From: Prorocentrum cordatum
Taxonomy: Eukaryota
Assembly: GCA_963575745.1 (NCBI GenBank)
Contig: CAUYUJ010000313.1
Location: 1-64,000 of the forward strand
Length of the DNA stretch: 64,000 nt
Direction: 5' to 3'
Within the stretch, counting starts at the first letter, position 1. Each line of letters opens with the position of its first letter. Both the position numbers and the translations under genes were made by a program. Positions 14,641 to 60,845 of the stretch are shown in pieces. Under the pieces are notes generated by a model. The model made no database searches and was not told the DNA's origin. It saw only the letters and a program-made list of their open reading frames with translations.

Positions 14641-14707
14641 AAATAATGCACCAACAAAAAAACAAACAAACAAAACGCCTCAAAGAGAACACCCTGACAT
14701 ATTGGAA

Positions 14708-15318: not shown

Positions 15319-15581
15319 CTCCTCCTCCTCCTCCTCCTCCTCCTCCTCCTCCTCCTCCTCCTCCTCCTCCTCCTCCTNNNNNNNNNNNNNNNNNNNNNNN
15401 NNNNNNNNNNNNNNNNNNNNNNNNNNNNNNNNNNNNNNNNNNNNNNNNNNNNNNNNNNNNNNNNNNNNNNNNNNNNNTCCTCCTCCTGCCTCCTCCTCCT
15501 CCTCCTCCTCCTGCCTCCTCCTCCTCCTCCTCCTGCCTCCTCCTCCTCCTCCTCCTCCTCCTCCTCCTCCTCCTCCTCCTC
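15319..15581. repeat. (CCT)n microsatellite spanning a 100-N scaffold gap (15378-15477)
   Basis: Direct inspection. Confidence 0.97.
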
Positions 15582-15603
15582 TCCGTAGCCATTTTGGCTC
15601 AAG
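15582..15603 (+). other. Complete dinoflagellate spliced leader (DinoSL) at the 5' end of LINE 1
   Basis: Exact match to DCCGTAGCCATTTTGGCTCAAG; not followed by a GT/GC donor, so not an SL RNA gene. Confidence 0.97.
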
Positions 15604-15767
15604 TCCGTAGCGTGGCTCAGTGGCCACCAGCGGGCGAGAGTTGAGGCAGAGGGGACCAGCGGCCCCTACCGACATACCACCCAAGGTTTCGCTACGGCAT
15701 TGGGGTGTTATCCCCCGCTGTACGAAGACACGACTACTTCGTTTTCGCTCTCTGTTACTTCAGGCAC

Positions 15768-16817
15768 ATGGGAAAAGGCGCTTTCTCTTGGTGCACGGCC
15801 TGCGGCAATTGGGCCTACAATTTCAGAATCAGGAGGAATGGCGGCAAGTGCGGGAAGTGCCAGGCCCACATCTCTCTTCCCGCGCCGTGGTGGGAGCAGC
15901 CAGGCCAGCAGCAGGGCCAGCAGCACCACCACCAGCCATCCTCTCCTTCGACGGCTACGCCAGACCCGTCGGCGATGCTGGCCTTGCTCGCCAGCTTGCC
16001 GATGTTCGCGGGTGAGGCCAAGACGCTCCTCGCCGCCAAGGAGCGTTGCGACGCGGCAGCCGTGCCGACGCCGCCCACGGCCCACACCTCCTACACCGCC
16101 ACCGCCAAGGAGCTTGAGAAGAAGGACGCAGCGCTCAAGTCGGCGGCCGAGGCGGTTGTGGCAGCGGAGGCCACCCTGGCACGTGCCCAGCAGAGGGCCG
16201 AGGAAGCCACGGTGGCCCAGATCGTCGCGCAGCAGGCCCATGACAAAGCGGTCGCTGCTGTCGCGGCCAAGGCAAACATCAAGCAGGTCCCCGACGGGTA
16301 CACTGCAGACGGCAAGCGCGTGGTCTTCGCCGTGGACGACGCGCTCTTCTCCGACCTCAGCGAGTTCGACGAGACGCAGCAGGCCGAGCTCCGCGCGTTC
16401 GAGGCGGAGATCAAGCAGAGGATCGACCAGGTGGCGGCGATGCAGGCGGAGGTGCACGCGCAGTACGACAAGGTGCGCGCCCTCCGCAACTCCCCGCCGA
16501 AGCGCCAGCGGGTCGACGAGGAGGGAGGCGCCGCCGCGCCCGCGGCAGGCGCTGCCGCAGCGGCTCCCGCAGAGCCGGCGGCAGCCGCAGCCGCCGCCGC
16601 CCCTCCTGCCGCCGACCCTGGCGCCGCGGTCTCCGCCCAGGCCAAGGAGGACGGCCTCATGGCGGCCCTCGCCAAGGCCCGCTCCGACTCTGTGGCCAAG
16701 GCGAAGGGCAAGGGCTCGGCCAGTGCTTCGAGCGCTGGCCCTGGCGCTGCTGGTGCTGCTGGCAGCGCCCCTTCTGCCGCTGCTGGGGCCGCTGGCCCTG
16801 CCCCAGCCCGCGGGTAG
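15768..16817 (+). CDS. LINE ORF1 protein (349 aa): N-terminal C-x2-C-x15-C-x2-C zinc ribbon, Ala/Glu/Lys-rich coiled coil, PKRQR NLS-like motif, Ala-rich tail
   Basis: MGKGAFSWCTACGNWAYNFR...GGKCGKC, DGYTADGK and EFDETQQAEL are conserved in ORF1 of element 2; strong GC3 codon bias. Confidence 0.85.
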   Translation: MGKGAFSWCTACGNWAYNFRIRRNGGKCGKCQAHISLPAPWWEQPGQQQGQQHHHQPSSPSTATPDPSAMLALLASLPMFAGEAKTLLAAKERCDAAAVPTPPTAHTSYTATAKELEKKDAALKSAAEAVVAAEATLARAQQRAEEATVAQIVAQQAHDKAVAAVAAKANIKQVPDGYTADGKRVVFAVDDALFSDLSEFDETQQAELRAFEAEIKQRIDQVAAMQAEVHAQYDKVRALRNSPPKRQRVDEEGGAAAPAAGAAAAAPAEPAAAAAAAAPPAADPGAAVSAQAKEDGLMAALAKARSDSVAKAKGKGSASASSAGPGAAGAAGSAPSAAAGAAGPAPARG

Positions 16818-16896
16818 CAGCGCCCCACCGCAGCCAGCGGGCGCTGGCTGCCCACCGCGGACGAGTTCTTCCCCTACCTGTTCAACGGCGTCCCTG

Positions 16897-19800
16897 ATGG
16901 CGGGGTCTCCCCAAACTCAGAGAGATGACGAGCAAGGTTCCGACTCCAAGCTCTTCTTCGCCAACATCTCCGAGTGGGGCCCCACCGCGAAGGGCTTCAT
17001 GAGAGGCCAGGCGCCCTCCTACGACCTCGTCGCGTTCTGCGAGACGCACGTCCTAGGAGAGCAGCTGGCCACCGCCAAATCCGATCTTGGCAAGGACGGG
17101 TGGAAGGTGACGGCCACCCCTGCAGTATTGACTGGAAGGTCTGATGCTGGCAACACAGGTGGAGAATGGGTAGTCTCGCGCAAGTCAGTCTGCACCACCT
17201 CCTTCGAGTCCTGGCGCCAAGCAGAACTTCAACGCACAGGTAAAGATTGTTTCCGAGGATTCGCTCCTCTCTTGTGGCACACGCGCGTCGGCAACATAGC
17301 GGTTGTCTCCTGTTACTTGCTTCCTGGCCACAAGTTCAAGGGCCCGAACGAGCAGATGCTGATCCGCCTTGCCTCGTTCTTGAAGCAGATCAAAGATCCC
17401 TGGATCCTGGTTGGCGACTGGAATGCGGTTCCGTCTGATTGGGCCAAGACTGCCTGGATCTCCAAGCTCGGGGGCAACATCTGCGTGCCCATCAACGGCC
17501 AGGTCACGTGTAACAAGGGCCGCGGCTCCCTCATCGACTACGCGATCGTGAAGGAGGGCCTCGCCGACAGCATCCGTGTGCATATTGTCCCTGAGGTCCC
17601 ATGGCGTACGCACGCTGGGATATGCGTCACGCTCAAGGCGGGCAAGAAGGCGCGGTGGCATCGCAGCCTCAGAGCCGCCCAACCTCTGCCGGCACTCCCG
17701 AGGCCTGTCCGCGCGGCTGACCCGAACAGCAAGCGGCAGAAGGCCATCGCCCAGGCGAAGCAGCGCCGCCGCCAGGAGCTCGACGACTACCTGCAGGAGG
17801 CGTACGCCGACCTCTACGACCACGATGAAGCCCCTCCAGCACCAGCTGCAGGACCTGCGTTCAACATCCCCTTGGCGTGCTGGCAGGCCGCCAAGGACAA
17901 GCCGTACGAAGGCGCCCCCGCACATCGGCCTCATTTCCTGCTCGATCGGGATCCCGAAGTACGTGACGATGTTGGCCTACGCTACGGGCGATGGGTCCAA
18001 GCAGTGGAGGAGGCAACGATAGCACACCACGAGCTTCCAGCAGGTGATGCCAAGAAGTGTCGTGGCAGGGCACAAGGATACGATATTGAATGGAAAATCA
18101 CGCGAGCCACCCCGTCCAGGCCCCACTTGAGAGATCCGCTACTCGAATGGTGGAACCTGTGCACGTCACTACTCTCGAGATTGGGCATCTTCCGACGGAC
18201 GGCTCGAGCTCACGACAACGCCTACACGATGACCAAGCTCCTCGAGTTGCTGGACGTTGGCCTGGACAGCGACTTCCAGAAGCCCTTCGGCGACGACGAC
18301 CAGTTCTGGACCTGGGTTGCGGCGATCCAGCAGATTGGCACTGCCGACGATGAGGATTTCGACACCATACTCCAGCAGGCGGAGTCCTACAAGAGCAGAG
18401 CCATCGGCCTCTCGTTGTCCAAGGCTCGCAAGGGATTCCAGGCCTGGGCCACCAAGATGTGGAAGGAGTCGCCAGGAATTCTACACCGCCACGTGAAAGG
18501 GGTACCTGACAAGCCCGACGAGATCATTGCTGACTCCAAGGTCTTCGCCGCCCCTGATGAGATGATGGACAAGCGTGCAGATGATTGGAACGAGATATGG
18601 AGCGACGACACGATGGTCCCTGCCAAGATCATCGACGGCCTCCAGTACGTCATGGACAGGGCCGACACCCAGGACCTCGAGCAGCTCACCGCCGAGCGCA
18701 TGAACAGCGCGCTGGGCTCCATGAGTGGCAAGAAGGCCAAGGGTGTCGACGCCATGGGCCCCATCGAGGTGCAGCGGCTGCCTGCTGAGGCCCGCCAGGA
18801 GCTGCTCGAGCTGGTGAAGCACATCGAGCGCGTCGCCATGTGGCCGCACCAGCTCTTCATGGTGATCGCCGCCGTCGCCCCCAAGCCGAAGGGGGGCGAC
18901 GGGATCCTGGGCCTGCTCCCGTTCCTGCCCAAGTTGTGGAGCAAGATGAGAAGTGCTGACTCCCTGGACTGGACGGTGGCCATGGACGAGCATTGGGACA
19001 CAGCGATCCGTGGCTCGTCTGCCCTGCAGGCTGCCTTGGTCCGATCTCTCCTCGATGAGACCTGCCAGGAGATGAAGATTTCATGTGCTACCTTGCTCCT
19101 GGACTTGGAAAAATTTTATGATAGTATTTCGATTGCCAAGATGTGTGCAGCAGGTGTTCGCCAAGGTCTTCCTGCTCTCATCCTCGCGCTGGAGTTGCAG
19201 CTGTTCCTTGCCCCGCGGCACCTCAAGGACAGGCTCTGGCTGAGCAAGGCGATTCAACCTGAGAAGAGTCTAGTGGCAGGCTCGCTGCAGAGTGGACGCT
19301 TCGCGAAGGCGTTCATGGGCCCCATGCTGGACAGGGCCCACATCAACTACGGGCTCAGGATCCTACTCCGCACCTTCGTTGACGACACGGTGGTTCGGGC
19401 AGAGGGGACAGCGCACGAGGTCGGCTCGCTGATGATCGACTCCTGCACGTCCTTGGCCAGCGACTTCGTGGACGCAGGGCTCAAGATAAGCCCGAAGACG
19501 GTGGTCGTTGCTTCGTCCTCGAGCTTGGCAGCCCGAATCACTGCCGGCCTGATCGATGTTGACATCCCTGTGACACCTGTCCGCCACGCTGTGGACCTCG
19601 GTGCTGACACGACCTCGGGCCGATCACGGACCAAGAAGCGCACCTCCGCCATCATGAGGATGAGGCGCCACGCCAGCCTCCGCGGCATCACCAAGGGCCT
19701 CTGGAGCATGGGGTCCAAGCCGCAGGGCACCTACACGCACCAGACGTTCGGGATCCCCGGCTACGAGCTGGTGCAGATCCGCCGCCAGGCCGCCCAGAGT

Positions 19801-20991
19801 GCCGTCGGCACGGGGCCTGGCCGATGTTTGACCACGTCGCTTGCCGCCGCCTTTGACCGACGAGACCCAGCGAAGGCACTTCGACGTGAGCAGGTCCTGG
19901 CATGGCTGCGATTGTGGCGAGAGTACCCAGAATATCACACACGTATTGCGAGATCGTGGGATAGCATCCGTAGCCGCCTACGATTAGCGGGTTCGCGAAG
20001 ATGGAGAGTTTCGAAGGGCCCCATTGCAGCTACGATTTCAACCTTGCTCGACATTGGTTGGGACCCCGTTAGCCCGATGGTGTGGTCTTCGGATGAGCAG
20101 TTCGAGTGGCACATCCCGTCTGTGGCGCCCCCAGAGTTCGACAACTTCCACGGAGACTTCACGGACATCCTTGATGACATTGAGGCCACGATTGACAGAC
20201 AGTTGTGGCGTGCGGCGGCCCTCCACGAAGCTGCCTCGGACCTCTCGGAGGGCGCGGACATGTACCACGTCTCCAGGGAGCTCAGCCGCCTCAAGCCAGA
20301 CCTCGAGGGCGACAACTGGGCGTTGGACGTGGTGGTCGTCACGGGCGCCCAGTGGACTCGTGAGCGCTTGCGCGCGGCAGGCTACCGTATTGATGGCCTC
20401 TGCCCCCGCTGTTCCAAAGCCCCCGAGGATTTGTACCACCGAGCGTGGGCCTGCGAGGCCAATGTTGGCCATGAAGATTTCGAGAAGAGCCAGGTTTTGG
20501 CCGAGAAAGCCCGGGTGAACCATGAGAGCTGCCCGAGTTTTTGGCTCCGCGGGGTCCCTGGCCGGGCCGAAACGGTCCCGACCTTCGCGGATAAGCCTCC
20601 CATCCGAATTTCGTTTGGCACCCTTGCAGCCGTTCCCAGAGACGCCGAAGGTTTTGTGACCTTGTTTGGGGACGGGTCGGGTGGGAGGTTCTCGGACGAC
20701 CCTCGGCGTCGAAGGGTCGGCTCGGGTCTGATCGGTCTCGCCCCCGAAGGGGCTGTCTGGCGTGCCGTCTGTGGTCTGGGCTGCAGCATCGAGGGCCGAA
20801 GACAGACCGTGCCGCGCGCTGAGATAACCGCCTTCGCCGAAGCCCTTGAATCCAGCGATGGCGACGTCCGTTTCGTTACTGACCATCGCCCCCTCCTGGA
20901 CTCCTGGACCAAAGGCTTCTTCTTTTTTTTTTTTTTTGTTTCTGATCGTTTTCTTGGGGTGGTCATAATGTCTGAGGCCTGCCGAGCATGA
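16897..20991 (+). CDS. LINE ORF2 polyprotein: APE endonuclease, reverse transcriptase, CCHC-like knuckle, N-terminal part of RNase H; disrupted after ~20915
   Basis: APE motifs ANISEWG, AFCETH, VGDWN, LIDY; RT motifs PKPKGG, LLDLEKFYDSI, FVDD (19375-19386); CPRC...HRAWAC; RNase H GDGSGG, VPRAE, VTDH. The start ATG is inferred; the frame is open from 15700. Confidence 0.92.
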   Translation: MAGSPQTQRDDEQGSDSKLFFANISEWGPTAKGFMRGQAPSYDLVAFCETHVLGEQLATAKSDLGKDGWKVTATPAVLTGRSDAGNTGGEWVVSRKSVCTTSFESWRQAELQRTGKDCFRGFAPLLWHTRVGNIAVVSCYLLPGHKFKGPNEQMLIRLASFLKQIKDPWILVGDWNAVPSDWAKTAWISKLGGNICVPINGQVTCNKGRGSLIDYAIVKEGLADSIRVHIVPEVPWRTHAGICVTLKAGKKARWHRSLRAAQPLPALPRPVRAADPNSKRQKAIAQAKQRRRQELDDYLQEAYADLYDHDEAPPAPAAGPAFNIPLACWQAAKDKPYEGAPAHRPHFLLDRDPEVRDDVGLRYGRWVQAVEEATIAHHELPAGDAKKCRGRAQGYDIEWKITRATPSRPHLRDPLLEWWNLCTSLLSRLGIFRRTARAHDNAYTMTKLLELLDVGLDSDFQKPFGDDDQFWTWVAAIQQIGTADDEDFDTILQQAESYKSRAIGLSLSKARKGFQAWATKMWKESPGILHRHVKGVPDKPDEIIADSKVFAAPDEMMDKRADDWNEIWSDDTMVPAKIIDGLQYVMDRADTQDLEQLTAERMNSALGSMSGKKAKGVDAMGPIEVQRLPAEARQELLELVKHIERVAMWPHQLFMVIAAVAPKPKGGDGILGLLPFLPKLWSKMRSADSLDWTVAMDEHWDTAIRGSSALQAALVRSLLDETCQEMKISCATLLLDLEKFYDSISIAKMCAAGVRQGLPALILALELQLFLAPRHLKDRLWLSKAIQPEKSLVAGSLQSGRFAKAFMGPMLDRAHINYGLRILLRTFVDDTVVRAEGTAHEVGSLMIDSCTSLASDFVDAGLKISPKTVVVASSSSLAARITAGLIDVDIPVTPVRHAVDLGADTTSGRSRTKKRTSAIMRMRRHASLRGITKGLWSMGSKPQGTYTHQTFGIPGYELVQIRRQAAQSAVGTGPGRCLTTSLAAAFDRRDPAKALRREQVLAWLRLWREYPEYHTRIARSWDSIRSRLRLAGSRRWRVSKGPIAATISTLLDIGWDPVSPMVWSSDEQFEWHIPSVAPPEFDNFHGDFTDILDDIEATIDRQLWRAAALHEAASDLSEGADMYHVSRELSRLKPDLEGDNWALDVVVVTGAQWTRERLRAAGYRIDGLCPRCSKAPEDLYHRAWACEANVGHEDFEKSQVLAEKARVNHESCPSFWLRGVPGRAETVPTFADKPPIRISFGTLAAVPRDAEGFVTLFGDGSGGRFSDDPRRRRVGSGLIGLAPEGAVWRAVCGLGCSIEGRRQTVPRAEITAFAEALESSDGDVRFVTDHRPLLDSWTKGFFFFFFFVSDRFLGVVIMSEACRA

Positions 20992-21309
20992 GTCGGGTTT
21001 TGAATAGCAGCGGGGAGCAGCGGGGGAGTGTTTGCGAATATTAGATCCTTTGGGCCAGGATTCCAGGCCGCCAAGCGTGATCGTGGGTCACTGGCCCCGA
21101 ATAGAATAATTGTAGTTTTTCTTTTTTTTTTTTTTTTTTCGGGTCCCTCCCCACCAAGAGGAGATAGGAGGACTTCCCATCTATTACATCTATCTCTTCC
21201 TCTCTCGCGTACGCAGTTGTTTTTTTTTCTATCTTACAAAAAAAACCTCGGGACATTGAAATCAATTATATCTAAATAGAATTTTTTTTATTATATGAAT
21301 TGAGCAGAA

Positions 21310-22000
21310 GACGCCTTGGCCAGCGAAGCTGCCGAGCTTAGCTGGACTGAATTCGTGATTTCGCCCCCCCCCCAGACCGATGTTCGGGACTCCGAGGCCG
21401 CCCTGGTCCGTCGGAGGGCGCGGAGAGCCCTGGCAGCGAGCATCCAAGCCGATCCCTGGACCTGCGAGCGCCCTGGAATCGAGGGGGGGGGCCCGTTACC
21501 TAAGCTTGCCTGTGCCCTGCGTGACTCAGAGCATTCGTGGTCCCGTGCAGGGACGAAGTATATATGTAGGCGTTGCAATTTGTTCTCGAATCAGGATTCG
21601 ATTTTCCAAATGTGTGCCTCCCGTTGCAGGCCCGGGCAGACGCCCGACTTCTCCCCCGTTCGTGCTGCGCTTTTGCGCTTTTCCTTTCTGTTTTCTTCTC
21701 TTTTGTTCGGTGGTTTCTGTCGGGGTTAGGGTAGAGGGTAGATGAGTAGGTAGTTTGATTTTTCGTTTAGAGAGCTTCCAGGGGCGCACCACTCTGCAGA
21801 AGAAGATGCGCATATAAATTGGTTTTCTGCACGACTTGCGGCAAGTCGTGCACCACCGACCCGAGATGGTTGGTCTTGCGATGTAATCCAACGGCCAAGG
21901 GCCGTCAGAATCTGGCGGCCATCAGGTCGGGGCGGTATCCGCACCCGTCGGGACCGCCAAGAGCGGTGAGAGAGGCGGAGTCACAAGGACTTGTTGGCCT
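21310..22000 (+). pseudogene. Fragmented C-terminus of element 1 ORF2 (end of RNase H and two zinc-finger-like motifs)
   Basis: DSEAALVRRRARRALAASIQADPW and FCTTCGKSCTTDPRWL...YPH align with element 2 (DAEAALVRRRARRALVASILADPW; FCTVCGKTATSDPRWL...YPH); interrupted by T-rich patches. Confidence 0.85.
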
Positions 22001-22186
22001 CGGTGCAAGGGGGGGTGGAACGGCCCAGACGACGTCGACGAGTGGTCGCGTTCCACCCCCCGAGGGAGTGGCTCATGTTGCCACTTCCGAGGGTTAAAAC
22101 TGAGGCCTCAGTTTTAACCCTCATGCGGTCCATGGCGCCGTTTGTGGACGTACGCTGTCCTTTCATCTGATCGCTCCTGATCGCTC

Positions 22187-22460
22187 CTCCTCCCTCCTCC
22201 TCCTCCCTCCTCCTCCTCCTCCCTCCCTCTCCCTCCCTCCACCACCTCCTACTCCTCATCCTTCCCTCCTCCCTCCTCCCTACTTCCTACCTCCTCCTCC
22301 TCCTCTCCTCCTCCCTTCCTCATCCTCTCCTCCGCCTCCTCCATCCTTCCTCGCCTCCTCCTCCTCTCCTCCTCCTCCGCCCTCCTCCTCCTCCTCTCCC
22401 TCTCATCCTTGCTCCCTCCTCCTCCTCCTCCTCCTCCTCCTCCTCCTCCTCCTCCTCCTC
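22187..22460. repeat. Degenerate (CCT)n polypyrimidine tract between the two LINEs
   Basis: Almost purely C/T; becomes perfect (CCT)n next to the second SL. Confidence 0.95.
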
Positions 22461-22482
22461 TCCGTAGCCATTTTGGCTCAAG
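22461..22482 (+). other. Complete DinoSL at the 5' end of LINE 2
   Basis: Exact TCCGTAGCCATTTTGGCTCAAG, followed by ATG rather than a splice donor. Confidence 0.97.
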
Positions 22483-22631
22483 ATGCCCGCATTCGGGGGC
22501 TCCGCGCCGCCGTGCCAAAATCTGAGCTGCCAGAACAGCACCCTTGAGTACTCGGAGATTTCGGGAGAATCGCACCGCCCAGCTGCCAGCGCAGTTGGGG
22601 TTAGAGCTCCCAAGCGTTCAGTCACGCAGTC

Positions 22632-23694
22632 ATGGCGCCGCGCCCATTCTCCTGGTGTACTTGCGGCAACTGGACCTACAACTTCCGCCTGCTGCACAAC
22701 GGCGGGATGTGCGGCAAGTGTGGGGCGCAGGTCACACTATTCCAGCCCGACGCTGCAGCGGCGAAAGGCAAAGGTAAAGGAAAGAAAGGCATCCTGGGCA
22801 ACAAGGGCGGCAAGGGCGAGGCTAAGTCGGCTTGGAACAACACTGGAGGAGGCAAAGGAGGCCCTTACCCGTGGTCCAAGGAGCCTGACGTCTCGCAGAT
22901 GCTCGCCATCCTCTCGAACGTCCCCGCCCTCGCGGCGCACGCCGACGTGTTCCGCCAGGCTGACATTTCCTTCAAGGCGAGCAAGGCGAAACCGGTGTCG
23001 CCCAACCAGGAGGTGTACCGCTGCAGCCAGACGTTGGAGAAGAAGGAGATGGCGCTCCAGAAGGCCTCGGCAGGACGTCGTCAAGCTGGAGTCGGCTCTC
23101 CAGGAGGCGAAGCTGTGGCTGCACCAGACGGCGGAGGAGGCCCTCTCCGCAAAACGGGCCCACACCATGGCTGTCAAGGCCCTCGCGGACTCCACGGGCG
23201 CCGCCAAGACGCAGGACGGCTACACCGCAGACGGCAAGAAGATATACCTGGCGTTGGACGAGTTCGACTTCGCAGCCAGCGACGAGTTCGACGACACCCA
23301 AAAGGCGCAGCTCCAGGCCATCCAGAAGCAGGTGGAGGAGCACTGCAAGCAGGTGGCGGACCTCCAGAAGACGATGCAGGAGGCGCTCAAGAGCGTCAAG
23401 GAGATCCGCGCAGCCCCAGCGAAGCGGCAGCGTGGCCAGGACGGCGCCGCCCCTGGCCCAGGCGCAGCCGAAGCCGAGGGCCCTGACGAAGACCAGGCAC
23501 CTACTGCAGCGGAGGACGGCCCCAGCTTCGCCGTCTCAGAGAGCGACATCGCCGCCAAGATCGCGAGCGCCAGGGAAGCCACGCTGGCCAACATGGGCGA
23601 CTTCCCTCCCCTGGGCACTGGCAATGGTGCTAGGGGCTCTCGCGATGGTGCGCCCAGACCTGCAGCAGCGGCAGCGGCCGCGCAGCGAGGGTGA
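22632..23694 (+). CDS. LINE ORF1 protein with one frameshift near 23070
   Basis: Frame 22632 gives MAPRPFSWCTCGNWTYNFR...GGMCGKC...LEKKEMALQKAS; homology continues in the 22483 frame (QDVVKLESAL...DGYTADGKK...PAKRQR...QRG*). Confidence 0.82.
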
Positions 23695-26600
23695 CCTACT
23701 CAACGGAGTCGGAGGAGGCGGCCACTCGCGACTAGGCGGCGCTACCGCTCAGCCGCCCCTCCCACAGTATGCGGCGAGTAGCGACACACGGGCTCCAGTT
23801 CCAGAGAACTACGACGCGACGTACTTCCTCTCGAACATCTCGGAGTGGGGCCCGCAGGCGGAGGGATTCATGAAGGCCCAAGCTGAGCAGTACGACGTGA
23901 TAGGCTTCGCGGAGATGCACCTGCGAGGCGTGAAGATCCTGGACTTCACCGAGAAGATCAGCAAGGACGGCTGGAAAGCCGCCGTCACAGCCGCAGCACC
24001 GTCGGGCCGATCGACTGAGGGCACGACGGGCGGCGAGGCGATCATATCCAAGCGCTCACTGGCCACGACGTCGTTCGAGGGGTGGCGCAAGCACGAGATA
24101 GAGCGATCGGCAGTCGACCCTTTCCAAGGCTTCTGCCCCACGACGTGGCACACGAAGGCAGGCAACATAGTGGTCATCTCCGCGTACATGCAGCCGAAGC
24201 ACGGCATGAAGGGCGCCAACGAGAAGATGATGATCAAGTTAGCCAGCTTCATCAACATGATATCCGACCCGTGGGTTGCCCTGGCCGACTGGAACAACCC
24301 ACCAGAGGCATGGGCTGGAACCAAGTGGCTTCGCAAGATTGGCGGCCAGTTGATCCTCCCTGAGAACACGAAGACCACGTGCAACCTGGGGTGCGGCTCC
24401 CTCATCGACTACGGGGTCTGCAAGAGCGGGTTCGGCGGCTCCCTCAAGCTCGAAGCCGCGCCTGAGGTCCCCTGGAAGACCCACGTGGGCCTCCTGCTCT
24501 CTATACGTGCGGGGAAGCAGCACTGGTGGCACCGAGCTATGCGGATACCGAAGCAGCTCCCGTCGGCGGGACGACCAGTGAAGAAAGCGGACCCGAACAG
24601 CAAGCGCCAGAAGTCGATGGTCGAGCGGCGCCAGCGCGCAAAGGCCAGACTCCAAGAGGAGCTCCAGGAAGCCTACGAAGAGCTCCACAGCTGGCCGACC
24701 ACGGCGGACACTGACAGCAACGACTCGGTGACTTTCGACATTCCGCTCGAAGTATGGCGGGCCGCAGCCGCCACGGTGGCAGGCCTGGGAGAGGACAATG
24801 AGGGTAACGAGGTGAAGGAAAAGTACGCCGATTCGAGCAATTCCCCCTCCTCCCACTTCCTGCTGACCCGCGACCCCGAGGCGCAGGAGCAGGTCGCCAG
24901 AGCGTTCGGCGACTGGGTGCAGACAGTAGAGAAGGCCACGCTCAAGCACCACGACATCCCCGAGACCGACTGGAAGCAGTACGAAGGCAGGGCCAGCGAG
25001 TACAAGATTACCTGGCGCAGGACCCGTGCTGCCCCAGCCCGCGCACATATGCGGGATCCGATGCTGGAATGGTGGCACTTGGCCACGGCGATCATAGCCA
25101 GATATCAGTTAATGAGGCGCAAGTTCTCGGAGCAGGACTATATGCGCATGGCAAACAGGATGAAGGAGCTGCTGGACGCTGCCACCGACAACAACTTCCT
25201 CGCCAAGTATACGGAGCCAGATGACAAGAGGGTCCTAGATGACTGGACCAAGGCCATTGCCGAATTGAACGGGCAGCACATCGACGCGCTCCAGGGCCTC
25301 CTGGAGATCGGCCTGAGGTTCCAAGCCCGTGCGGTGGGCATAGGACTCGCCAACGGCAGGCGGGCTTTCGCCAGTTGGGTCACTCGCATGTGGAAGCAGG
25401 CTCCAGGTGTGCTTCACCGACATGTGAAACCAGCTGCCTCTCGGCGAGACGAGCACTACGGGGACGCGGGCAGCACCTACGCCACGCCGTGCGAGATCAT
25501 GGACCGCCGCGCCGACTATTGGGAGAACGTCTGGTCCGACTCCGGCGCCGACCCCAAGAGTATCCTCGACGGCCTGAAGTATGTCGCGGAGCAGGCCAAG
25601 AGGGAGGACGTTCACCCGCTCGAGCTGGAGCACCTCGACCACCTGCTAGCGAAGCAGAACCCGAAGAAGGCCAGAGGCATTGACAACCTCGGCCCGCTGG
25701 AGGTGCAACGACTTCCAGAGCCAGGACGCAGACAGATGCTGGAAGTCCTCAACCTCTGCGAGAAGCACCTCATGTGGCCTTACCAAATCTACACGGTCAT
25801 AGGCGCGGTCGCCCCCAAGCCGAAGGGAGGCGACAGGATCCTGGGGTTGCTCCCGTACACGATGAAGGTGTGGTCCAAGCTCCGTTACCCGTTGAGCGAG
25901 AGGTGGAGCGACAGGCTTGGCGAGTTCTGGGACACGGCCATCAAGGGAAGTAGCCCGCTGCAAGCCTCACTGGCGAGGGCCTGCATGGACGAGTGCTGCT
26001 TCACCATGGGCATCAGCTGCGCGACCATCCTTCTAGATTTGGAGAAGTTCTACGACAGCATCTCCATCACAAAGCTCTGCCAGGCCGGCCTGAGGCAGGG
26101 CTTCCCTGCAGTCATCCTCGCGATGGAGCTCCAGATCTTCCTCGCCCCGCGATACTTGAAGGAGCGCCAGTGGATCAGCAGGCCGATCAAGATCGGAAAG
26201 CCGCTAGTGGCAGGATCCCCACACGGCGGCAAGTTGGCGAAGGTTCTCTTGGGCCCCATCCTCCAGCGCGCCCACGACAAGTACCAGTTCAGCATCATGA
26301 TGAAGACGTTCGTGGACGACACGATCATCCGCAGCGAGGGCACGTCCAGCAACGCGGAGACCACTCTGGTCCAAGCTGGCACCTCCATCGGCCACGACAT
26401 GCAGCTCGAGGGCCTCACGATCAGCCCCAAGACAGTCGTGGTCGCCAGCACGAGCAGCATCGCCAACAGAGTGGCACGAGCACTTCGGAGAAAAGGCATT
26501 CGGGCCACCTCGGCCCAGGCTGCCGCGGACTTGGGGGCCGACGTTGCCTCGGGACGGGCTCGCGCCAGGGCCACAGCACGCAGGCGAATGGTGAAGGCTA

Positions 26601-28653
26601 GCAGACGGTCCGCAGCCATTCACAGAATCAGGAGAATAGCCCGATTAAAGAGAGAATCGCAAGGTCTATGGAGAACGGGTGCCATGCCGTCTGGGACCTA
26701 CTCACACCAGCACCACGGGCTTCCTGAATACGAAGTGCTACGCCTCCGACGTCAAGCTGCTGCAGCCGCCTCTGGCGTGGGACCAGGGAGATGCTTGACG
26801 ACTGCCCTGGCCATCGAGTACGGCGACGACGACCCCGCTAAGAGTACCAGGCGACAGCAGATAGCAGCGTGGTTGACCATGTGGCGCCAGTGCCCAGGCA
26901 TCCATGACAGGATTCGGCAATCCTGGGACAAGATCCTCGACCGCATACGGAAGGCGGGCCAACGCAAGTGGAGGATCGTCCGAGGCCCAGCGGGAGCAAC
27001 CATAGCCACCCTCCTCGAGATTAACTGGGACCCGATCTCGGCGACTCAGTGGGGCACGGACGCTGGCAAGAGTTGGCTGATCCCAGCAAGAGAGGACGAG
27101 GGATCAAGAAGCTGAACGCGGACTACTCGGAGATCTTCAGCGATATCAACAACTCAGTGGACAGAATTCTCTGGACTCGGGCTTCGAGACATGAAGCAGG
27201 TAACGACCTCCACAGCGGAGGAGATTTCAGCATGATCAAGCAGGAGCACCGCCGTTTCGCCAACAAGGAGCAGCACAGCGAGATCGCGCTCAACACGGTG
27301 GTCACGACGGGCGGCCAGTGGACACGTACACGGATGGCTGCCGCAGGATACGAAGTTTCCGCAACTTGCCCGAGATGTGGAGATCAAGATGAATCTATTT
27401 TCCACAGAATATGGACGTGCGCAGCCAACTGCGACCACGACGACTTCACGGACAGCGACTTCCTCACCGCACAGGCGTTCGCGAACCACGAGGCCTCCCC
27501 GTCTTTCTGGCTCCGCGGCGTCCCCGCGGCAGCTGACACTATACCCGTCTTCGACGAGACCCCACCCATCACGGACAGCTTCGGGGACATCTCGAGGATC
27601 CCACGCGACGAGGAGGGATTCGCTGAGATTTTCGGAGACGGGTCGGGCGGTGAGCATAGCAGTGACTGGCGCCGCAGACGCGCGGGCTTTGGTTTTGTTT
27701 CTCTGGCCCCTGGTGCTCTGGACCCTATCGTTGGTGTTTCGTCTTCCCTGGAAGGGCGGGTCCAGACGGTCCCGAGGGCCGAGCTCTCTGCTTGTCTCGC
27801 CGCCCTGGAGCGAATCCCAGGGAAGATCCGATATATGACGGACCACCTGGCCCTGGCCCAGGCCTGGTCCAAAGGAGTCCCGCTCCTCCTTGCCTCCTCG
27901 TCCCCTCCCGCGAACGTCGACCTTTGGACCAGGATCCTGGAGGCTGCGGGAGATAGAGTCATTCGCGTAGTGTGGATCCCTGCCCACGTTGAGGCCAGGG
28001 ACGTGAATACCGAGGAGGCCCTTCGCAATGCTGTAGGCAATGCGTGTGCTGACGCACTCGCGGGCCTAGGAGCCCAGGCGAGCCAACGGTGCCGTCTCAC
28101 GAATCCCGACACCGACCGCCGCGATGCCGAGGCCGCCCTGGTCAGACGACGGGCTCGGAGAGCTCTGGTCGCGAGTATCCTTGCCGATCCCTGGACCGCG
28201 ACTCGGCCCGAGGCCCCTGTGGCCCAGCGTCTCCCCATTCTGACCAGGAGTTTGCGAGCCAGCGAGCACCAGTGGCGGAAGGTTGGTGCGAAGTATTTCT
28301 GCACGGTCTGTTCCCAGTTCGAAACCAGGGAGTCAAATCGAGAAGGGTGCCAGTCAAGGTGCTGCCCCAAGCCCCAGGGCCAGGGCATCTCACCGCTTCG
28401 CGGCCCCCAGATTGTGTCGGGGAAGCTTTTGTGTTCGAGCCACAAGCTCTCCTTCTGGGGCCGCTTTGGATTAACGTTTTGCACGGTGTGTGGCAAAACT
28501 GCCACGTCCGACCCAAGGTGGTTGGTAGACAGATGCAGGGCCTCCCCCAAAGGTGCGCAAAACCTCGCGAGGATCGCCCGAGGTTTATATCCGCATGTGG
28601 GGGGGCCCCCGCAGCACGTTCGGGACGCCGAGATTTCCAAATTCGTCCAGTAA
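23624..28653 (+). CDS. LINE ORF2 polyprotein (APE, RT, CCHC-like, RNase H, C-terminal zinc fingers) with one frameshift near 27100; start uncertain
   Basis: SNISEWG, GFAEMH, LADWN, LIDY; PKPKGGDRILGL, LLDLEKFYDSI, FVDD (26309-26320); CPRC...HRIWTC; complete RNase H motif set GDGSG / RAE / TDH / WIPAH / GNACADALA. Confidence 0.92.
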
Positions 28654-28809
28654 CTCGTCTGGCTTTGATCCAGTTTTCTTGGGGGCTCTGCTGGTGGCGT
28701 AAATGGCAAAGTGATGCGACGCCCTTCGGGAGGCCAGTAAAAGATCACGAGCGCCATCCAGCAGGGCTCCCCGGAGACATAAGACGGAGGCGAACTGGCG
28801 TTGGTGTCG

Positions 28810-29340
28810 CAAAGGAAGGAAGAGATAAATGGAATGAGGAATAAGAATGAGCAAGAAGCTGAATAAAAAGAAGGAAGAACAGAATAAAGAAGAATAAAGA
28901 ATTAAAACGAAACAGACAAAGCTAAGCAAGAAAGGAATTAGAAGACGACGAAGAAAAGAAATACAAAGAATAAGAAGACGCTTAGCAAGACAGAAGAAGA
29001 AAACAGAACGAATGAAAAGCATAAGGTAACCCGAACGAGACTGACCGACTCATCGAAAAAGTTTTAAGAGAACAAGAAGTAGAAATAACTAAGAAAGAAA
29101 AAAAAACAAAAATAAATCAACAAACACAGCATCGCGGAATAAGAACGCTAACTCAGAAAAGAAGAAGAAAAGAATAAAATAATAATGATGCATCCGCCGA
29201 CGCAATAAGCCTAAGCAGCAATCAAGACTTAATTACTAATAATAATAAAATACGAAGAAACTCAAAATAGTTAAGTAATAAAAATAATAAGCAGAACGGA
29301 AGACACTCAGAATAATACAGACGAATCAATACTAATACTA
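28810..29340. other. A-rich low-complexity tract after element 2 (degenerate tail or noisy consensus)
   Basis: GAA/AAT-rich with no stable period. Confidence 0.5.
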
Positions 29341-29469
29341 CATCATCCAGCCAAATCCTCCTAACTCCAAGAATCCTTGATCTCCTACCTACGATATAGT
29401 CACTCCACCTCCTAATAATGCAATCTAATACCTTCTCCGGACCCCCCTCCTCCTCCTCCCCCGATTCCT

Positions 29470-29658
29470 TCTCATCATCATCCGCCTCCGCCTCGTCATC
29501 CTACTAGTCGCCGTCAGCATCGTCATCGACAGCATCATCAGCAGCATCAGCATCATCAGCAGCATCAATATCGTCAGTATCAGCATCCTCATCAACAGCA
29601 TCATACTCAGCATCATCATCATCAGAATCAGCCTCAGCATCAACAGTATCAGCATCAG

Positions 29659-29723
<65 letters not shown>

Positions 29724-30841: not shown

Positions 30842-30872
<31 letters not shown>

Positions 30873-31957: not shown

Positions 31958-31959
31958 GC

Positions 31960-55499: not shown

Positions 55500-58200
55500 G
55501 GCAATGCATCATACTCCCCACCGAAGCCCACAAGTCGACTCCAGATGCTGCATCTCGAGACCCCCGACACACCTGCGAGCCGAAACTGGTCTGGCATGCC
55601 CCGTTGCCCGCCTGGTGAGCGAGCGAATCCCGCGCTCCTCCCGCAACGAGTTCGGCAACTGCAAGCACTCCGCGCTTCTGCCGCCGCTTCCAAGCGCCGC
55701 TGGATCGCGCGGCGAGATTAGCGCAACGCCCACGCCATCTCCAGGAAACCTCGGACTCCGCGCGCCGGGCCCCCCCCCCGACGCGCCCCCGCACGCAAGG
55801 AGTGGCTCCTCGCAAGTGCCTGTGGCCAGAATGGTGAAGCCATCGTCGATGTCATCGCTGTCCCAATTCGGGCCAGGAGTCCACGACTGAGACACTGCGG
55901 GGGGCAGGAACCGCGAGACAAGATGACGGCAAGAGACCTCTGCGCCAGAAACACGCAAACTGTCCACGCTGCGCCGCGGCCTCCGGAAAATACCTGTCAG
56001 AGTCTGCATAAACCTCACTGTCCTTATCATGAGGACACGCCGAACATCTGGAATGGCGTCTCACGGTGACGCCCCCCATCTGCCAAACTCTTGAAACGCC
56101 ACTGCTGATCGACATCAACTCCTCCGAATCTCGACCTCTGCCAAATCTAATCAAAGGGCGATTGCCGGAAGTGCCGCAGCCCGTGGCCCACACTTGGGCG
56201 CCGCACGTAACCGACGCAGCATGGCCCAAGGAAGCACAGTCACCCCCAACCCCCCAGCCACACCAACCCCCCAGCCACCCCCACCCCCACTCCGCACCCA
56301 CCCACCCCATCCACCCACCCACCCACCCACCCCACCACACCCCAGCAATACCCGCGCCTGCATGGTGAATTGACGCATCATGACATTAAAACTCACGCAC
56401 TGGACCGGCGAAATCTGACATGATGCCTGTCGGGCCCTCGTCGCCTGTCATGAGCTCGCCCGAGAATTTCCACTCGATGATATCGGACTATGGCTCCTCT
56501 GGCGAGCCACGCTGCCGATGCGATGGACAGCGCAACTGCCAACCACGCCGCAACAGAAGAATGATCACCGCACAGAGAGGTCCCAGCACGCTTCGCGGCC
56601 GACCAGCCCGTTGCCTCTGGCTGAACTCGGCGACTACATGATCCCATAATCGTGCGGCGGCTGGCCTGATGCCACTCGCCGCCGCCCAGATACGCAGCCA
56701 CTCAGCAAGGCAATCTCTGCCCGACCTGACTGCTGGATCCTGCTGCGGAGCACGCACGTCCAAGGCAGCAGTCAAACACGCCCCCCCCCCTGCTGGATCC
56801 ACAAACTGAACCAAGATGCCTGCGAAGCCGAAAGAGCGCGGCGCCAGGTGCACTGTGCACTTGGTGCCCGTACCTGGCCAATGTCTGACCTGCTCAACTC
56901 TCCAGAAGGGGGGGTCGCTTGATATTGTCGCGAAGCCTTGCCTCATGTCGATGTACGTGCTGTTCTTGACCCTGGTTCGATGATTCCCCCCGGCTCTCGC
57001 GGCTCTTGCTGCTCTCTAACCTGCCTCCATGCCGATTCCAAGAAAGGCAGTTCCAGGGGCAGATCGAAGGTACAGTCTCCGCCTCCGTAGTGCAGCGACA
57101 ACATATTTAGTTTGCATGCGATTGGTGGCCAGAAGAACGTTCGCAGATTCTCCGCAGCCAAGGTTGAAAATGCCTGCGACCGCTTTGATCACGACCCGAC
57201 TGACAAGCTTATCCGACCCCACTGATGATACACTCAGGTCATCAATCCGGATCTTCAAGTGTAGCTGCAAATTGACTGTCGCTAACCCCTGGAGCACCAC
57301 ATGCGTAGCACATGTCTCAAAGCGCGTGCCGCTCCAAAGCCCCATTGGCGATCGAACGACCTGGCTCGAACGCGCAGGACGTGGAGCCCATCTACGACAA
57401 CACACGCGGGGCTGCGCATAGCTGCAACTCGAGTCTAATTATGAGTGCGGAGTATACTAGACTGGCCCATTCCACTACATCGTAGCAGGACTGAATGTCC
57501 ATCGGCGCGTTTAGGATACTCCGAACACACTGTAGACTTTCTCGTACAACGTCTTGAAAGGCTTCTATCAGCGCCGAGTTACCTGCCAGAGCCGCGTCCC
57601 AACTCTCACTGGATTGTTGCGTCCACGGCTTCATCACGGACTCACGAGTCTTGGACCAAATCACGGACGTCATGCAAATCAATCCTATCACTCGATCCCC
57701 CGACGCTTGTAGGAGTGCAAGACGCCCTTCCACAACCAAAATCTGTCACGGCCAAATCATGGATTCCTCAATTTGAGGAAACGTCTCAACAAACTCCTCT
57801 CGCCCTGCCATTGGCAACCGTTGGACATCCAGCGGCGTGACCCGTATCTGCTTGAGTGATGACACGGTAATTGATGCGTCGACGCCATGAGAGATCGTCT
57901 CGCCGCTCTTGAGGGTGACTTCCTCCGCCGTCACCGGCACGTCCCTTGGGGATCGAAGAAGAATACCGGTTGCCTCCGCAGCATTGACCCACCTAGGGAA
58001 CTCGATCAAGCTGCCCGTGACTGCTCTACTCTGCGCCTTTCGTGCGAGTCCGAAGGCGCCCCCCTCGAGGTGCTCCATGACGGGGATGGTGGCCTTGATG
58101 ATACTCTGCAAAGACCAAAACCAGATCTCCCACCACGGATCGGCTGCACAAAGAAGACTGCGGATCTGCTGCTTCGCACCGTTGGCATTGCGCTTGTGCA
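55500..58200 (-). pseudogene. Decayed ORF2 of a related non-LTR retrotransposon (RT and post-RT region)
   Basis: Minus-strand fragments SGDRVIGL...VIWSK...WDAALAGNSAL...DIQSCYD...IIRLELQLCAAPR, LKIRIDD, and CLTAAL...DPA...LAEWLRIW...WD...GPLCAVIILLLRRGW align in order with elements 1 and 2; many frameshifts; boundaries approximate. Confidence 0.8.
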
Positions 58201-58454
58201 CTAGTAATTGCTAAACCACTGTGTGCACCTGCGCCCACCAACTTGCAACTCGATCACACACTCAAAGTTGACAAAACTTGATCGGACGATGCAGCTCACG
58301 TACCTGAAGCGAAGGGACCACGAGCTTGACCGTCAGACGCCTGTCTAAGTCCCACCAGCCCTCTGGGCGTAGGTGGTCTAGAGACGCTCCTCTGCCAACC
58401 CGCTTTTTTCCCCTTCGGAGAAGGGTTTACCCCTCCTCCTGCGTCCTCGCTGAA

Positions 58455-59000
58455 GCATCCAAGATGGCCCAAAATGGCTCCAAGAGGGCCCCTGAGAGTC
58501 CGAGATGAGCTCCAGGATAGCTCATGATAGCGCACGATGCCTCAAGATGGTTCCCAAGAGGCCCCAAGAAGCCCCAATAACGTTCTAAGACGGTTCCAAT
58601 AGGCCTCCGAGACCTCCAAGGAGGCCCCCGAGAAGCCAACATCCTGCGTAAACCTACGGAAAATAAACAATGGTTCCCTTCTCTCCGTTTCGCTTCCGAT
58701 GGCCATCCGAGTCCTCAAGATGGTCTGGAGAGGCCCAAGAGAGCCCCACGACGGCCGCAAGAGCGCCCAAAAGCGTCCCAAAAAGAGTCCAGGAGGCGAT
58801 TGTCGGTGCTCCCGAGGGGGGAGGCTAATTGAAGCTCCCCTCTTGTTTGATCGATGTCCTCCAAGATGGCCCCAAGATCACCCCTGGAGCTCCCAAGAGC
58901 GCCCCAAGAGGCGCCCCAAGAGGCGCCCAGACGGCCCCAAGGGGCCTCCAAGAGGCTCCCAATGGACCCCACACGAGGCTTCAAGAAGATCCCCGAGGTA
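58455..59000 (+). repeat. CCCAAGA-rich dispersed repeat followed by a CCT/GAC tract
   Basis: Same unit vocabulary as 52036-52895. Confidence 0.65.
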
Positions 59001-59569
59001 CCCTATTATGCCTCCTTCGCCTTCTTCTCCTCCTTCTCGTCCGCCTCGTCCTCGCCCTGCTCCTCCTCCTCTTCCGCCTTCTCCTCCTCCTCCTCTTCTT
59101 CCTCCTCCTCCTCCGACGACGACGACGACGATTCCTTCTCCATCCTCCCCTCTTGGGGTATATGACGGCTTCCCCCGCCCACTTTTCTTCTGCATGCTCC
59201 CCCACGTCGCTAATCACCTCGATTCCCCTGGGCATCGTTTCTGGATGGGCTGGTGGGGTTGGTTTCCATCGCAGCCGCAGGCGAAGGCGCACAGCGGCGT
59301 CACAAGTCAGCTCGGGCTACGAGCAAACCTAATTAACCTAGCGCGCGCACTGGCGGCTGCAGAACTACCGCCGAGGGACGCTGAGCTGCGCCGAGGGCTG
59401 AGGCTGCAGGAGCTGCCAGGAGAGCCAGGCAAGCGTGCGGGCATCCCAGAGGCGAGACCAGCAGGAAGGATGAATTGTCCTGCTCCGATGTGTGACGATG
59501 CTCCAGAATCGTGCGCTCCACTGTGGAGATCCAAGATGCGTGCGCCAACCTCGCAAACCTGCGGAATAC

Positions 59570-59591
59570 CTTCAGCCAAAACGGCTACCGA
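59570..59591 (-). other. Degenerate DinoSL (19/22)
   Basis: Minus strand TCGGTAGCCGTTTTGGCTGAAG versus TCCGTAGCCATTTTGGCTCAAG. Confidence 0.75.
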
Positions 59592-59854
59592 GTCAGCGAC
59601 AAAACGCCACGCGGGCTCGTAAGACTGAGGGCCAATATCGACCATCTCACGATCAGCCTGCCGCGAAGACTCGGGAATATGAGAATCTGTGCTCGCCAGA
59701 CAAGACCTGGGTCCCAGGGGAGTCCTCGAAATCTTGTGCGGTTGGGTGTGTGGGCGATGTCTCTCCATACTTTGACCTCGAGACTATGTGAGACCGGGAA
59801 GAGGTCGGCCTGGATGAGTGAGACACAAAGGGAGAAGAGGAAGGAAAAGAGTTG

Positions 59855-59982
59855 AGTCAGGCATGTCCTCCTACAGGCTGATCTTGTAAGAAAAAAGAAG
59901 AACAGAAGAGCACGAGAAATCGTCACCTGGCTATTTTTTACTATTCTTGAATACTCCTCCCGTAGAGGGGCATGCCCGACTT
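59855..59982. mobile_element. Small MITE-like element, copy 2
   Basis: AGTCAGGCATGTCCTCCTACAGG ... CCCGTAGAGGGGCATGCCCGACT imperfect inverted ends; homologous to 6821-6937. Confidence 0.5.
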
Positions 59983-60734
59983 GAGAGAAGAGGTCAAGGT
60001 GGGGCCCCTCGTGGGTTCAGCAGGAGCCTCCCCGGGCCCATGCCCAGAGTCGGACTCATGCGCCCACGGGTCCTCGTCTTCCCCAAGGGCGACCCGGAAA
60101 AGATCACTAAGGATGTCCTCGTCCTGAAAAGGATGTCCGAAATATGATTCGAGGATTTCCTAAGGTGAGTTGGCCTCGGATGAGGATGAGTTGGCCTCGG
60201 ATGAGGACGATTCCTCGTCCTCCTCCGAGGCCAACTCACACTGAGCAGCAGCATCGTCGGCAGTTAAGTTGCCGTTTCGGCGTGCTCCTCCCCAGAAGGA
60301 GACTCCTGCACTCGCGAATGTCTCTCGTGAACACGCTGCCTACGCTCATGTTCCTCCTCACGAGCCCGTGATGCCTTCGAGCCAAGGGGTGCTCGCCGCT
60401 TTGGAACAGGACACCTGTGGTAATCGCGCTGGGAGGCCCAGAGCACGCACAAGTAACTGAGACCCAGATCCCCGAATTCAGACCTGCAATTCGACGTGAA
60501 TTTTCCAGGGCACCTGAACGACAGGTTTTACATTGAGAATGTGAGCTAAACAGCTGTTACTCGCAACTACAAAGTCAATGAGAAAGCATGTCTTGCTGGC
60601 AGTGCAAGTGGTCGTGAGCCCTCCCGTGACGATCCGACCCCGATGGAGATGATGAAATCGCTACGAGCAAGGGTGGCAGATGGGAAACTGAAGTCCCCGA
60701 CGATTGGACACGAAAGCTGGAGGGCCCTGAGAGG

Positions 60735-60845
60735 CAGAGGGAGGAGGAGGAGGAGCAGGACGAGGAGAAAGAGGAGAAACAAGAGGGGGAGGAGGAGGAG
60801 GAGGAGGAGGAGGAGGAGGAGGAGGAGGAGGAGGAGGAGGAGGAG
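60735..60845. repeat. (GAG)n microsatellite
   Basis: Direct inspection. Confidence 0.95.

Follow-up and report, generated by a model that had tools for sequence, protein, structure and literature searches.

LINEs headed by a complete dinoflagellate spliced leader and flanked by microsatellites in Prorocentrum cordatum

Dinoflagellate nuclear mRNAs receive a spliced leader (DinoSL, here also SL) by trans-splicing, and relics of the SL tag host genes that have been retroposed. Long interspersed nuclear elements (LINEs) need a full-length capped RNA made from within their own sequence, for which the known answers are internal promoters, ribozymes and the promoter of the targeted gene; R2, for example, cuts itself out of a co-transcript with a ribozyme. 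CRE1/2, SLACS and CZAR of trypanosomatids and NeSL-1 of nematodes encode a restriction-like endonuclease, and their insertion sites lie within SL RNA genes. LINEs of the R1 and Tx1 groups that are specific for microsatellites (Waldo, Mino, Kibi and Koshi) have reportedly been described by Kojima and Fujiwara, and DinoSL-relic retrogenes of dinoflagellates are said to have been described by Slamovits and Keeling in 2008. Here a 64,000-nt stretch of Prorocentrum cordatum DNA (contig CAUYUJ010000313.1, forward strand; hereafter the window) was analysed, in which two LINEs, elements 1 and 2, each begin with a complete DinoSL that directly abuts a microsatellite.

The CRE1/2, SLACS, CZAR and NeSL-1 elements resemble the present ones in that a LINE is physically joined to SL sequence, whereas the present elements encode an apurinic/apyrimidinic endonuclease (APE), carry a complete SL and have (TCC)n or (AG)n flanks with no remainder of an SL gene. 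Waldo, Mino, Kibi and Koshi are likewise of the APE type, with one orientation in a given simple repeat and the repeat on both sides (here in element 1 and in L268, a LINE from another assembly), although these are animal elements without an SL, and the likeness drawn here concerns flanks and APE. In the accessible text on DinoSL-relic retrogenes (PMC5585692; PMC12014239) a DNA-encoded 5' SL marks a reverse-transcribed trans-spliced mRNA, as in the present elements. The retrogenes, however, are host genes copied in trans and usually bear truncated 15-nt relics, whereas the SL described here is complete throughout families that are 24-46% identical and heads autonomous elements encoding APE, reverse transcriptase (RT) and RNase H. 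The SymbioLINEs of Symbiodiniaceae (de Mendoza et al. 2018, PMC5890265) are, going by the main text, also LINEs that fall into many diverged lineages and combine an open reading frame 1 (ORF1) with an ORF2 containing the RT, but their hallmark ORF1 is a DNA methyltransferase (DNMT) while the present ORF1 carries a zinc finger and has no DNMT match; the terms 'spliced leader' and 'DinoSL' are absent from that main text. For L1Tc/ingi, which live in a trans-splicing host, unspliced transcripts from the internal promoter Pr77 are described in the accessible text of PMC1874656. L1Tc and R2 resemble the present elements as answers to the need of a LINE for a defined, translatable 5' end, but unlike these two the present elements have their 5' end at the host SL, and the Rfam search identified no ribozyme.

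Within open-access texts covered by term look-up, supplements aside, no statement was found that dinoflagellate LINEs begin with an SL or that encoded SLs abut microsatellites (PMC12014239, PMC7245778, PMC8045281, PMC5585692, PMC10235124, PMC3942190, PMC3229502, PMC11453091, PMC5890265, PMC7789003 and PMC10666404). A first-pass annotation of the window had not recognised the combination as a described family, and no prior description appeared in this part of the literature. The accessible text of Song et al. 2017 (PMC5585692) reports the gene ontology (GO) term 'RNA-dependent DNA replication' as enriched among SL-tagged genes, so SL-headed elements probably sit unrecognised in the lists of that study.

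Two LINEs headed by a complete DinoSL

A scan of the window identified the 22-nt DinoSL TCCGTAGCCATTTTGGCTCAAG with 0 mismatches on the + strand at 15582-15603 and 22461-22482, as the first-pass annotation had reported, and none of 100 dinucleotide-preserving shuffles of the window contained a match, so that none is expected by chance. The nucleotides directly 3' of the SL were TC in element 1 and AT in element 2, which agrees with the earlier claim that neither SL is followed by a GT or GC donor. Likewise, the reported distance of 149-164 nt to ORF1 was recovered, with the ATG at 15768 (164 nt) in element 1 and at 22632 (149 nt) in element 2. The SL had also been proposed to be the first base of each element and this was the case, as an unrelated repeat flank ends exactly there. 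The parts of element 1 (15582-22183) were as follows.

15582..15603, + strand, complete DinoSL, first 22 nt of element 1 (exact SL match)
15604..15619, + strand, decayed second SL (TCCGTAGC, 4-nt gap, GTGGCTCA) directly 3' of the perfect SL (local alignment)
15604..15767, + strand, 5' untranslated region (UTR), 164 nt, no Rfam match
15768..16817, + strand, ORF1, with an N-terminal C4 zinc finger (WCTACGNW..CGKC), a coiled-coil-like middle and an RG end
16897..20991, + strand, ORF2, with APE at ~17014-17566, RT at ~19018-19498, a zf-RVT-like region at ~20335-20461 and RNase H broken off near 20916
20918..21380, + strand, unrelated AT-rich stretch replacing part of the RNase H (protein comparison)
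21381..21995, + strand, frameshifted remnants of the ORF2 C-terminus (tblastn matches 21310-21666 and 21813-21995)
21996..22183, + strand, 3' UTR with two strong hairpins, one a perfect 15-bp stem at 22089-22122 (z = -5.7)

Element 2 extends from 22461 to ~29330 and was divided in the same manner.

22461..22482, + strand, complete DinoSL, first 22 nt of element 2 (exact SL match)
22483..22631, + strand, 5' UTR, 149 nt, no SL relic and no Rfam match
22632..23694, + strand, ORF1 with a frameshift near 23070, revealed by the relative P0001
23624-27115 and 27025-28653, + strand, ORF2 in two frames with a frameshift near 27100
28654..29330, + strand, 3' UTR to ~28810, then a tail-like purine/A-rich stretch of ~520 nt (~28811-29330)

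Elements 1 and 2 are APE-type non-LTR retrotransposons (LINEs) on the evidence of their Pfam domains, the absence of direct-repeat families of at least 30 nt in either element, and hence of long terminal repeats, and a profile match to an L1 protein. The Pfam families found were Exo_endo_phos, RVT_1, zf-RVT and RNase_H. RVT_1 was above the cut-off in element 2 (4.6e-8) and below it in element 1 (1.8e-4), and Exo_endo_phos lay N-terminal to the RT in element 1 (5.7e-7), while the APE of element 2 is assigned entirely from its 46% identity to element 1 across that domain; on these grounds the earlier claim that the elements encode APE is upheld. In element 2 the ORF2 comprised an APE-like domain, RT (~25814-26432), zf-RVT (~27301-27423), RNase H (~27628-28075) and a Cys-rich C-terminus. 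Compared with solved structures, the family profile (A4) matched human L1 ORF2p best (7.5e-11), followed by cellular RNase H1 (3e-7), and a phmmer search with the element 2 ORF2 alone had 0 matches there. No Pfam family was matched in either ORF1, so there is no DNMT match, and no restriction-like endonuclease domain was reported by Pfam in either element. An Rfam search of the window and of the 5' UTRs found 0 families, so that no known ribozyme matches the 5' UTRs.

The two elements are clearly distinct from one another. Their ORF2 proteins were 46% identical over 1106 aa and their ORF1 proteins 31-38%, the DNA was ~65% similar and aligned at length mainly in the RT, and a blastn comparison of the two 5' UTRs had no match outside the SL and the upstream repeat; diverged proteins and unalike 5' UTRs had both been noted in the first-pass annotation. 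The layout is shared, with ORF1 followed by an ORF2 composed of APE, RT, RNase H and a Cys-rich end, and both ORF1s open with a C4 zinc finger (M..FSWC..CGNW.YNFR...NGG.CGKC) ahead of a coiled-coil-like middle. A search of a large protein collection with ORF1 returned a single relative, P0001, which was 76% identical to that of element 2, and a 96%-identical protein was listed under the source name Prorocentrum cordatum. Both window copies are damaged and dead, but their families are multi-copy, as contigs 85-99% alike were present in four sequencing runs compared as Logan contigs (X1, X2, X4 and X8 among them). As part of the explanation favoured below, elements 1 and 2 would come from two families of one deep dinoflagellate LINE lineage.

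Two differences between the window copies and these contigs were seen. Contigs of runs X1, X4 and X8 have 30 extra letters at position 19632 of element 1, which is either a 30-nt in-frame deletion in the window copy or an insertion in the others. At 15635 and 22517, X8 contigs (four per place) and one X2 contig (at 22517) share the SL and the first 30-35 nt of each UTR and then diverge, and other subfamilies may share just the leader-proximal part of the UTR.

Microsatellite flanks within and outside the window

The first-pass annotation was sound as to the APE-type LINEs and the SL as first base, its interpretation was supported in part, and it missed the microsatellite context. This context is no less striking than the SL head, and it shifts the picture to site-preferring LINEs. 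Four features define it in the window.

15319..15581, + strand, (CTC/TCC)n microsatellite, 5' flank of element 1, containing the assembly gap 15378-15477 (100 N) (repeat scan)
22184..22460, + strand, (CTC)n array lying between the elements, on the 3' side of element 1 and the 5' side of element 2 (repeat scan)
29340..29505, + strand, degenerate TCC-rich stretch behind element 2, ~79% to (CTC)n arrays
56524..60845, - strand, fragments of a third and more distant LINE whose 5' truncation falls within APE, with homology beginning at most ~100 nt behind (TCC)n at 60845-60740 (-)

Both SLs directly abut (CTC/TCC)n with an identical junction, reading ...CTCCTC before the boundary and TCCGTAG after it, and element 1 has the same repeat (TCC)n on both sides. 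The degenerate stretch at 29340..29505 is possibly the remainder of the target repeat of element 2, judging from its similarity to the arrays. A contig of run X1 joins (TCC)n to element 1 position 21976 and represents a 5'-truncated family member, so that one 5'-truncated copy was found in the window and one in an element 1-family contig; target duplications are unreadable inside microsatellites. The TCC-sense orientation was found in all four (TCC)n junctions (elements 1 and 2, the third LINE and the X1 contig), while (TCC)n-type arrays cover ~2.2% of the window + strand (sum over repeat-scan rows).

A third SL-like site with 3 mismatches lies between fragments of the third LINE at 59591-59570 (-) and is followed by GTATTCC. 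At first sight it resembles an SL gene as GT follows, but what follows is unlike the introns of true SL genes.

The flanks bear on whether the SL could be the target of elements inserting into SL RNA genes or arrays, in the manner of CRE/SLACS/CZAR and NeSL. The presence of an SL at the junction fits such targeting and nothing else does. SL RNA gene sequence upstream of the SL, which the first-pass annotation had named as contrary to its interpretation, was looked for and the upstream flank was a microsatellite, not an SL gene promoter; the complete SL leads into element UTR, as against a GT-intron in at least 37 true SL genes; the 3' flanks of element 1 and L268 are the same microsatellite and not the remainder of an SL gene; and the endonuclease is APE with no restriction-like domain reported by Pfam. 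Taken together, the flanks, the completeness of the SL and the type of endonuclease exclude insertion into SL genes.

An unlikely though still credible alternative is that the microsatellite is not a target but the 3' tail of the element itself, as in head-to-tail arrays, or is generated at the 5' junction during integration. The 3' UTR of element 1 leads straight into the (CTC)n that precedes element 2 without an A-run, and the repeat adjoining each SL is the most perfect portion of its array, both of which this alternative would account for. Against it, the DNA upstream of the element 1 array has no LINE similarity, an A5-6 run separates the 3' UTR from the downstream repeat in three loci of other assemblies (L268, L206 and L210) as expected for poly(A) joined to a target, and the DNA past the 3' repeat of L268 is not SL. 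We therefore favour insertion into pre-existing microsatellites.

Matches to the exact 21-nt SL were scanned in three public collections, metagenome and viral contigs among them, and SL heads were found on at least two further LINEs from other assemblies. L268, a 9096-nt contig filed under a bacterial metagenome-assembled genome (MAG), has the order (AGAGAC/AG)n, SL, ORF1, ORF2, 3' UTR and AAAAAA(AG)n. Its ORF1 has a RanBP2 zinc finger (1.6e-7), and its ORF2 has APE (Exo_endo_phos, 2.7e-9) N-terminal to RT (RVT_1, 2.1e-11) and RNase H (4.8e-6) and is colinear with the ORF2 of element 1 (24% identity, E = 6e-24). L017 has the order SL, 286-aa ORF1 and ORF2 with APE (Exo_endo_phos, 7.1e-8). The SL was at the exact boundary with an unrelated flank in all four SL-headed LINEs (elements 1 and 2, L268 and L017). 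Element architecture, the precise SL boundary, the flanking DNA and the recurrence in other assemblies are thus matters of observation. LINE RTs are known to switch template at 5' ends, and an RT that reached the 5' end of an element RNA lacking an SL and then jumped to a different RNA with an SL would yield a chimera comparable to U6/L1. A switch onto SL RNA would, however, bring part of the intron and a switch onto mRNA would bring mRNA body, whereas in each of the four LINE heads the UTR is preceded by precisely 22 nt, which renders this origin very improbable.

A shorter contig (L155, 1.8 kb) has, besides an SL, two standard 15-nt relics and an ORF that opens with a RanBP2 finger, includes a coiled coil and closes with ...RRG. 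This ORF resembles the ORF1s of elements 1 and 2, and the contig is taken as a hint only. L155 and L197 both have a RanBP2-type finger close behind the SL, and no APE is present on these short contigs. Broader searches added little: an ORF1-finger scan of metagenome contigs gave 164 pattern matches, about chance level, with 0 confirmed; a LINE ORF2 profile scan of viral contigs gave 140 with 0 confirmed; tblastn of the window LINE proteins against the first 139 SL loci had 0 matches at 1e-5; and the ORF2 of element 2 had one weak match (L140, E = 2.6e-5) in five MAGs behind SL loci. A Pfam scan covered 80 of 177 ORFs behind SLs, with the longer ORF per locus chosen by hand and 27 ORFs of loci after L208 left out, and most of the 80 had no match.

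In total, at least 276 distinct SL contexts were found across the three collections, with at least 136 behind AT-rich promoter-like motifs (giant-virus contigs), at least 37 in SL RNA genes (SL then GT-intron) and at least 103 others. An SL was scored as microsatellite-preceded if the 20 nt before it formed a simple repeat with a period up to 6 and a self-match of at least 0.75, and 95 of the 103 other contexts had sufficient upstream sequence. Among the matches listed, 20 of the 95 (21%) were microsatellite-preceded compared to 173 of 9973 (1.7%) control windows in the same loci, and downstream-offset controls were microsatellite-like in 0 of 92, 1 of 91 and 0 of 87 windows. Among these 20, L137, L217 and L238 resemble misfiled viral promoters, and at least four more loci (L001, L197, L230 and L239) fall slightly below the threshold. 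The repeats before SLs included AG, AC, GT, TA, CT, TCA, GGGT and GACA. A general rule in which (TCC)n serves as the polypyrimidine tract of a trans-splice acceptor was ruled out, as other SLs follow (AG)n, (AC)n, (GT)n, (TA)n, (TCA)n and (GGGT)n.

Five repeat-preceded loci outside the window had at least 3 kb downstream, and in three of them (L268, L206 and L210) the repeat was found again on the 3' side, each time after an A5-6 run. The same repeat did not return downstream in L001 and L004; L004 passes over into bacterial genes and is possibly a chimera. L206 (-) and L210 (+) are SL-headed inserts of 3.3-3.5 kb that are not LINEs, with (CA)n on both sides and AAAAA before the 3' repeat, and their ORFs (539 and 806 aa) had no Pfam match. 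Both have the appearance of host mRNAs that were retroposed into (CA)n.

Proposed renewal of the SL and its alternatives

The explanation we favour, at a probability of roughly 0.7, is that these LINEs use as template a mature trans-spliced mRNA, whose copy extends to the first SL base and integrates into microsatellites, and that every cycle renews the SL. A source copy would be transcribed and its RNA would gain the 22-nt DinoSL by trans-splicing like other nuclear mRNAs, after which the ORF2 protein would nick a microsatellite and target-primed reverse transcription would run to the first SL base, so that every full-length daughter would start with an SL. The daughter transcript would get a new SL, most simply at the AG ending the encoded SL, in an exchange without a relic, and this renewal would keep the outermost SL perfect while the rest of the element diverges. 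Insertion would occur in one orientation, with (TCC)n as the site of the window families and (AG)n as that of L268. Microsatellites would likewise receive host mRNAs mobilised in trans, and it is proposed that DNA-encoded SLs elsewhere often abut microsatellites for this reason. We infer the trans-splicing of element RNA, the per-cycle renewal, the acceptor used, the dependence on host transcription and the targeting by the endonuclease.

Several findings point to renewal rather than mere inheritance of the SL. The SL does not differ between families whose proteins share 46% or 24% identity and whose UTRs are unrelated, element 1 has the decayed inner SL at 15604..15619 and L155 has standard relics. 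The inner relic of element 1 had a local alignment score of 21 that was equalled by 0 of 2000 shuffles. By the same test no relic was found in the element 2 5' UTR, and shuffles equalled the score behind the other heads in 806 (element 2), 377 (L268) and 1225 (L017) of 2000 cases. The first-pass annotation had suggested that the SL is refreshed on diverged elements, and the decayed SL that lies inside the perfect one of element 1 fits repeated SL addition.

Alternatively, the SL could be a DNA-encoded, vertically inherited module, such as an internal promoter, a start-site element or a translation tag, which is selected in master copies and not re-added, much like the SL mimicry of giant-virus SL cassettes. 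The giant-virus contigs, which carry the SL many times directly behind a conserved AT-rich promoter motif, suggest that an SL can be transcribed straight from its DNA-encoded copy; standard relics are lacking from the four LINE heads; and promoter motifs supplied to retrogenes by DinoSL relics are proposed in the accessible text of Song et al. 2017 (PMC5585692). A LINE is unable to carry an upstream promoter, however, and initiation at SL base 1 is unsupported by the present evidence. The decayed inner SL of element 1 indicates an SL added over an existing one, which a module leaves unexplained, and two standard relics lie ahead of the ORF1-like gene of L155. An encoded module was therefore judged improbable, and renewal by trans-splicing is retained.

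A number of points weigh against renewal and microsatellite insertion as set out above. L017 has no microsatellite upstream, 75 of the 95 SL contexts among the matches listed have none by the criterion used, and element 2 ends in an A/G-rich stretch with just degenerate TCC-rich DNA 3' of it. L268 and L017 were retrieved via their SL and indicate recurrence rather than frequency, which within the window is 2 of 2. The support comes from contig sequences, and that the SL on element RNA is spliced, as against encoded, is what we infer. Repeated cycling via the usual internal acceptor (the AG at SL positions 6-7) should accumulate 15-nt relics, and none was found by relic alignment behind the SL of elements 1 and 2, L268 and L017, so that an extra assumption is required, either exact replacement or selection. 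Co-transcription with a host gene is unsupported here, as 0 of 34 ORFs near the window copies had a Pfam match. That the SL replaces a promoter is accordingly put forward as a hypothesis.

It is conceivable, and in our judgement somewhat short of an even chance, that the elements belong to a deep dinoflagellate-wide LINE lineage that gave up its internal promoter, uses host transcription and takes its cap and 5' end from SL trans-splicing. In such a lineage the terminal AG of the encoded SL would be a self-renewing acceptor, integration into microsatellites would be orientation-specific and the same machinery would make SL-tagged retrogenes. If this is true, the use of a host SL as 5' end would be a fourth answer to the LINE requirement for a capped full-length RNA, suited to a genome in which promoters are few and trans-splicing is general. 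Shared machinery would account for the microsatellites that adjoin roughly one in five DNA-encoded SLs, and it would tie together rampant retroposition and abundant simple repeats, the two hallmarks of dinoflagellate genomes. The elements also provide a concrete candidate for the machinery behind dinoflagellate retrogenes, for which the accessible text of reviews gives just 'presumably LINEs' or 'Ty1/copia'. The signature of SL, insert and A-run within one microsatellite could be used for dating and counting retroposition in any dinoflagellate assembly.

Other SL arrangements and repeats

Other arrangements of the SL were seen during the scan. In IMG/VR giant-virus MAG contigs (L021-L139, for example L031, L044 and L126) the DinoSL is encoded many times per contig before different genes, and these copies sit directly behind the conserved AT-rich promoter-like motif (ATTGATAAATCAATTTTTTATTTTT... 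or ATTGAAA...TAGTA). Tandem SL units of 50 nt were present in L044, L084 and L223. In L087 (5319-1, -) an SL at the contig start is followed by a viral RdRP_1 polymerase (4.9e-7), and the contig looks like an SL-bearing dinoflagellate positive-sense single-stranded RNA virus as mentioned in the accessible text of PMC10235124. A lone 21-nt SL at ~6001-6021 (-) of L009, a 209-kb contig under a Rhodospirillaceae MAG, lies between two copies of the same 19 nt (TTTTGCTTGCAGGCGTGAG) and is like a minimal insertion with target duplication. Tandem palindromic units (GGACCCCGGGGTCCTTTAAAA) precede the SL in the metagenome contigs L146, L177 and L184.

The window itself includes kilobase-scale (ACT)n and (TCA)n arrays at 36-4446, 5412-6378, 29514-32322 and 51273-51935, a perfect 204-bp tandem duplication at 52896-53304 and gaps of 100 N at 15378-15477 and 51936-52035. 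Shortly upstream of the element 1 flank, the region 14700-15010 consists of repeated units with long G-runs and C-runs around GGTCGAAC(C) motifs.

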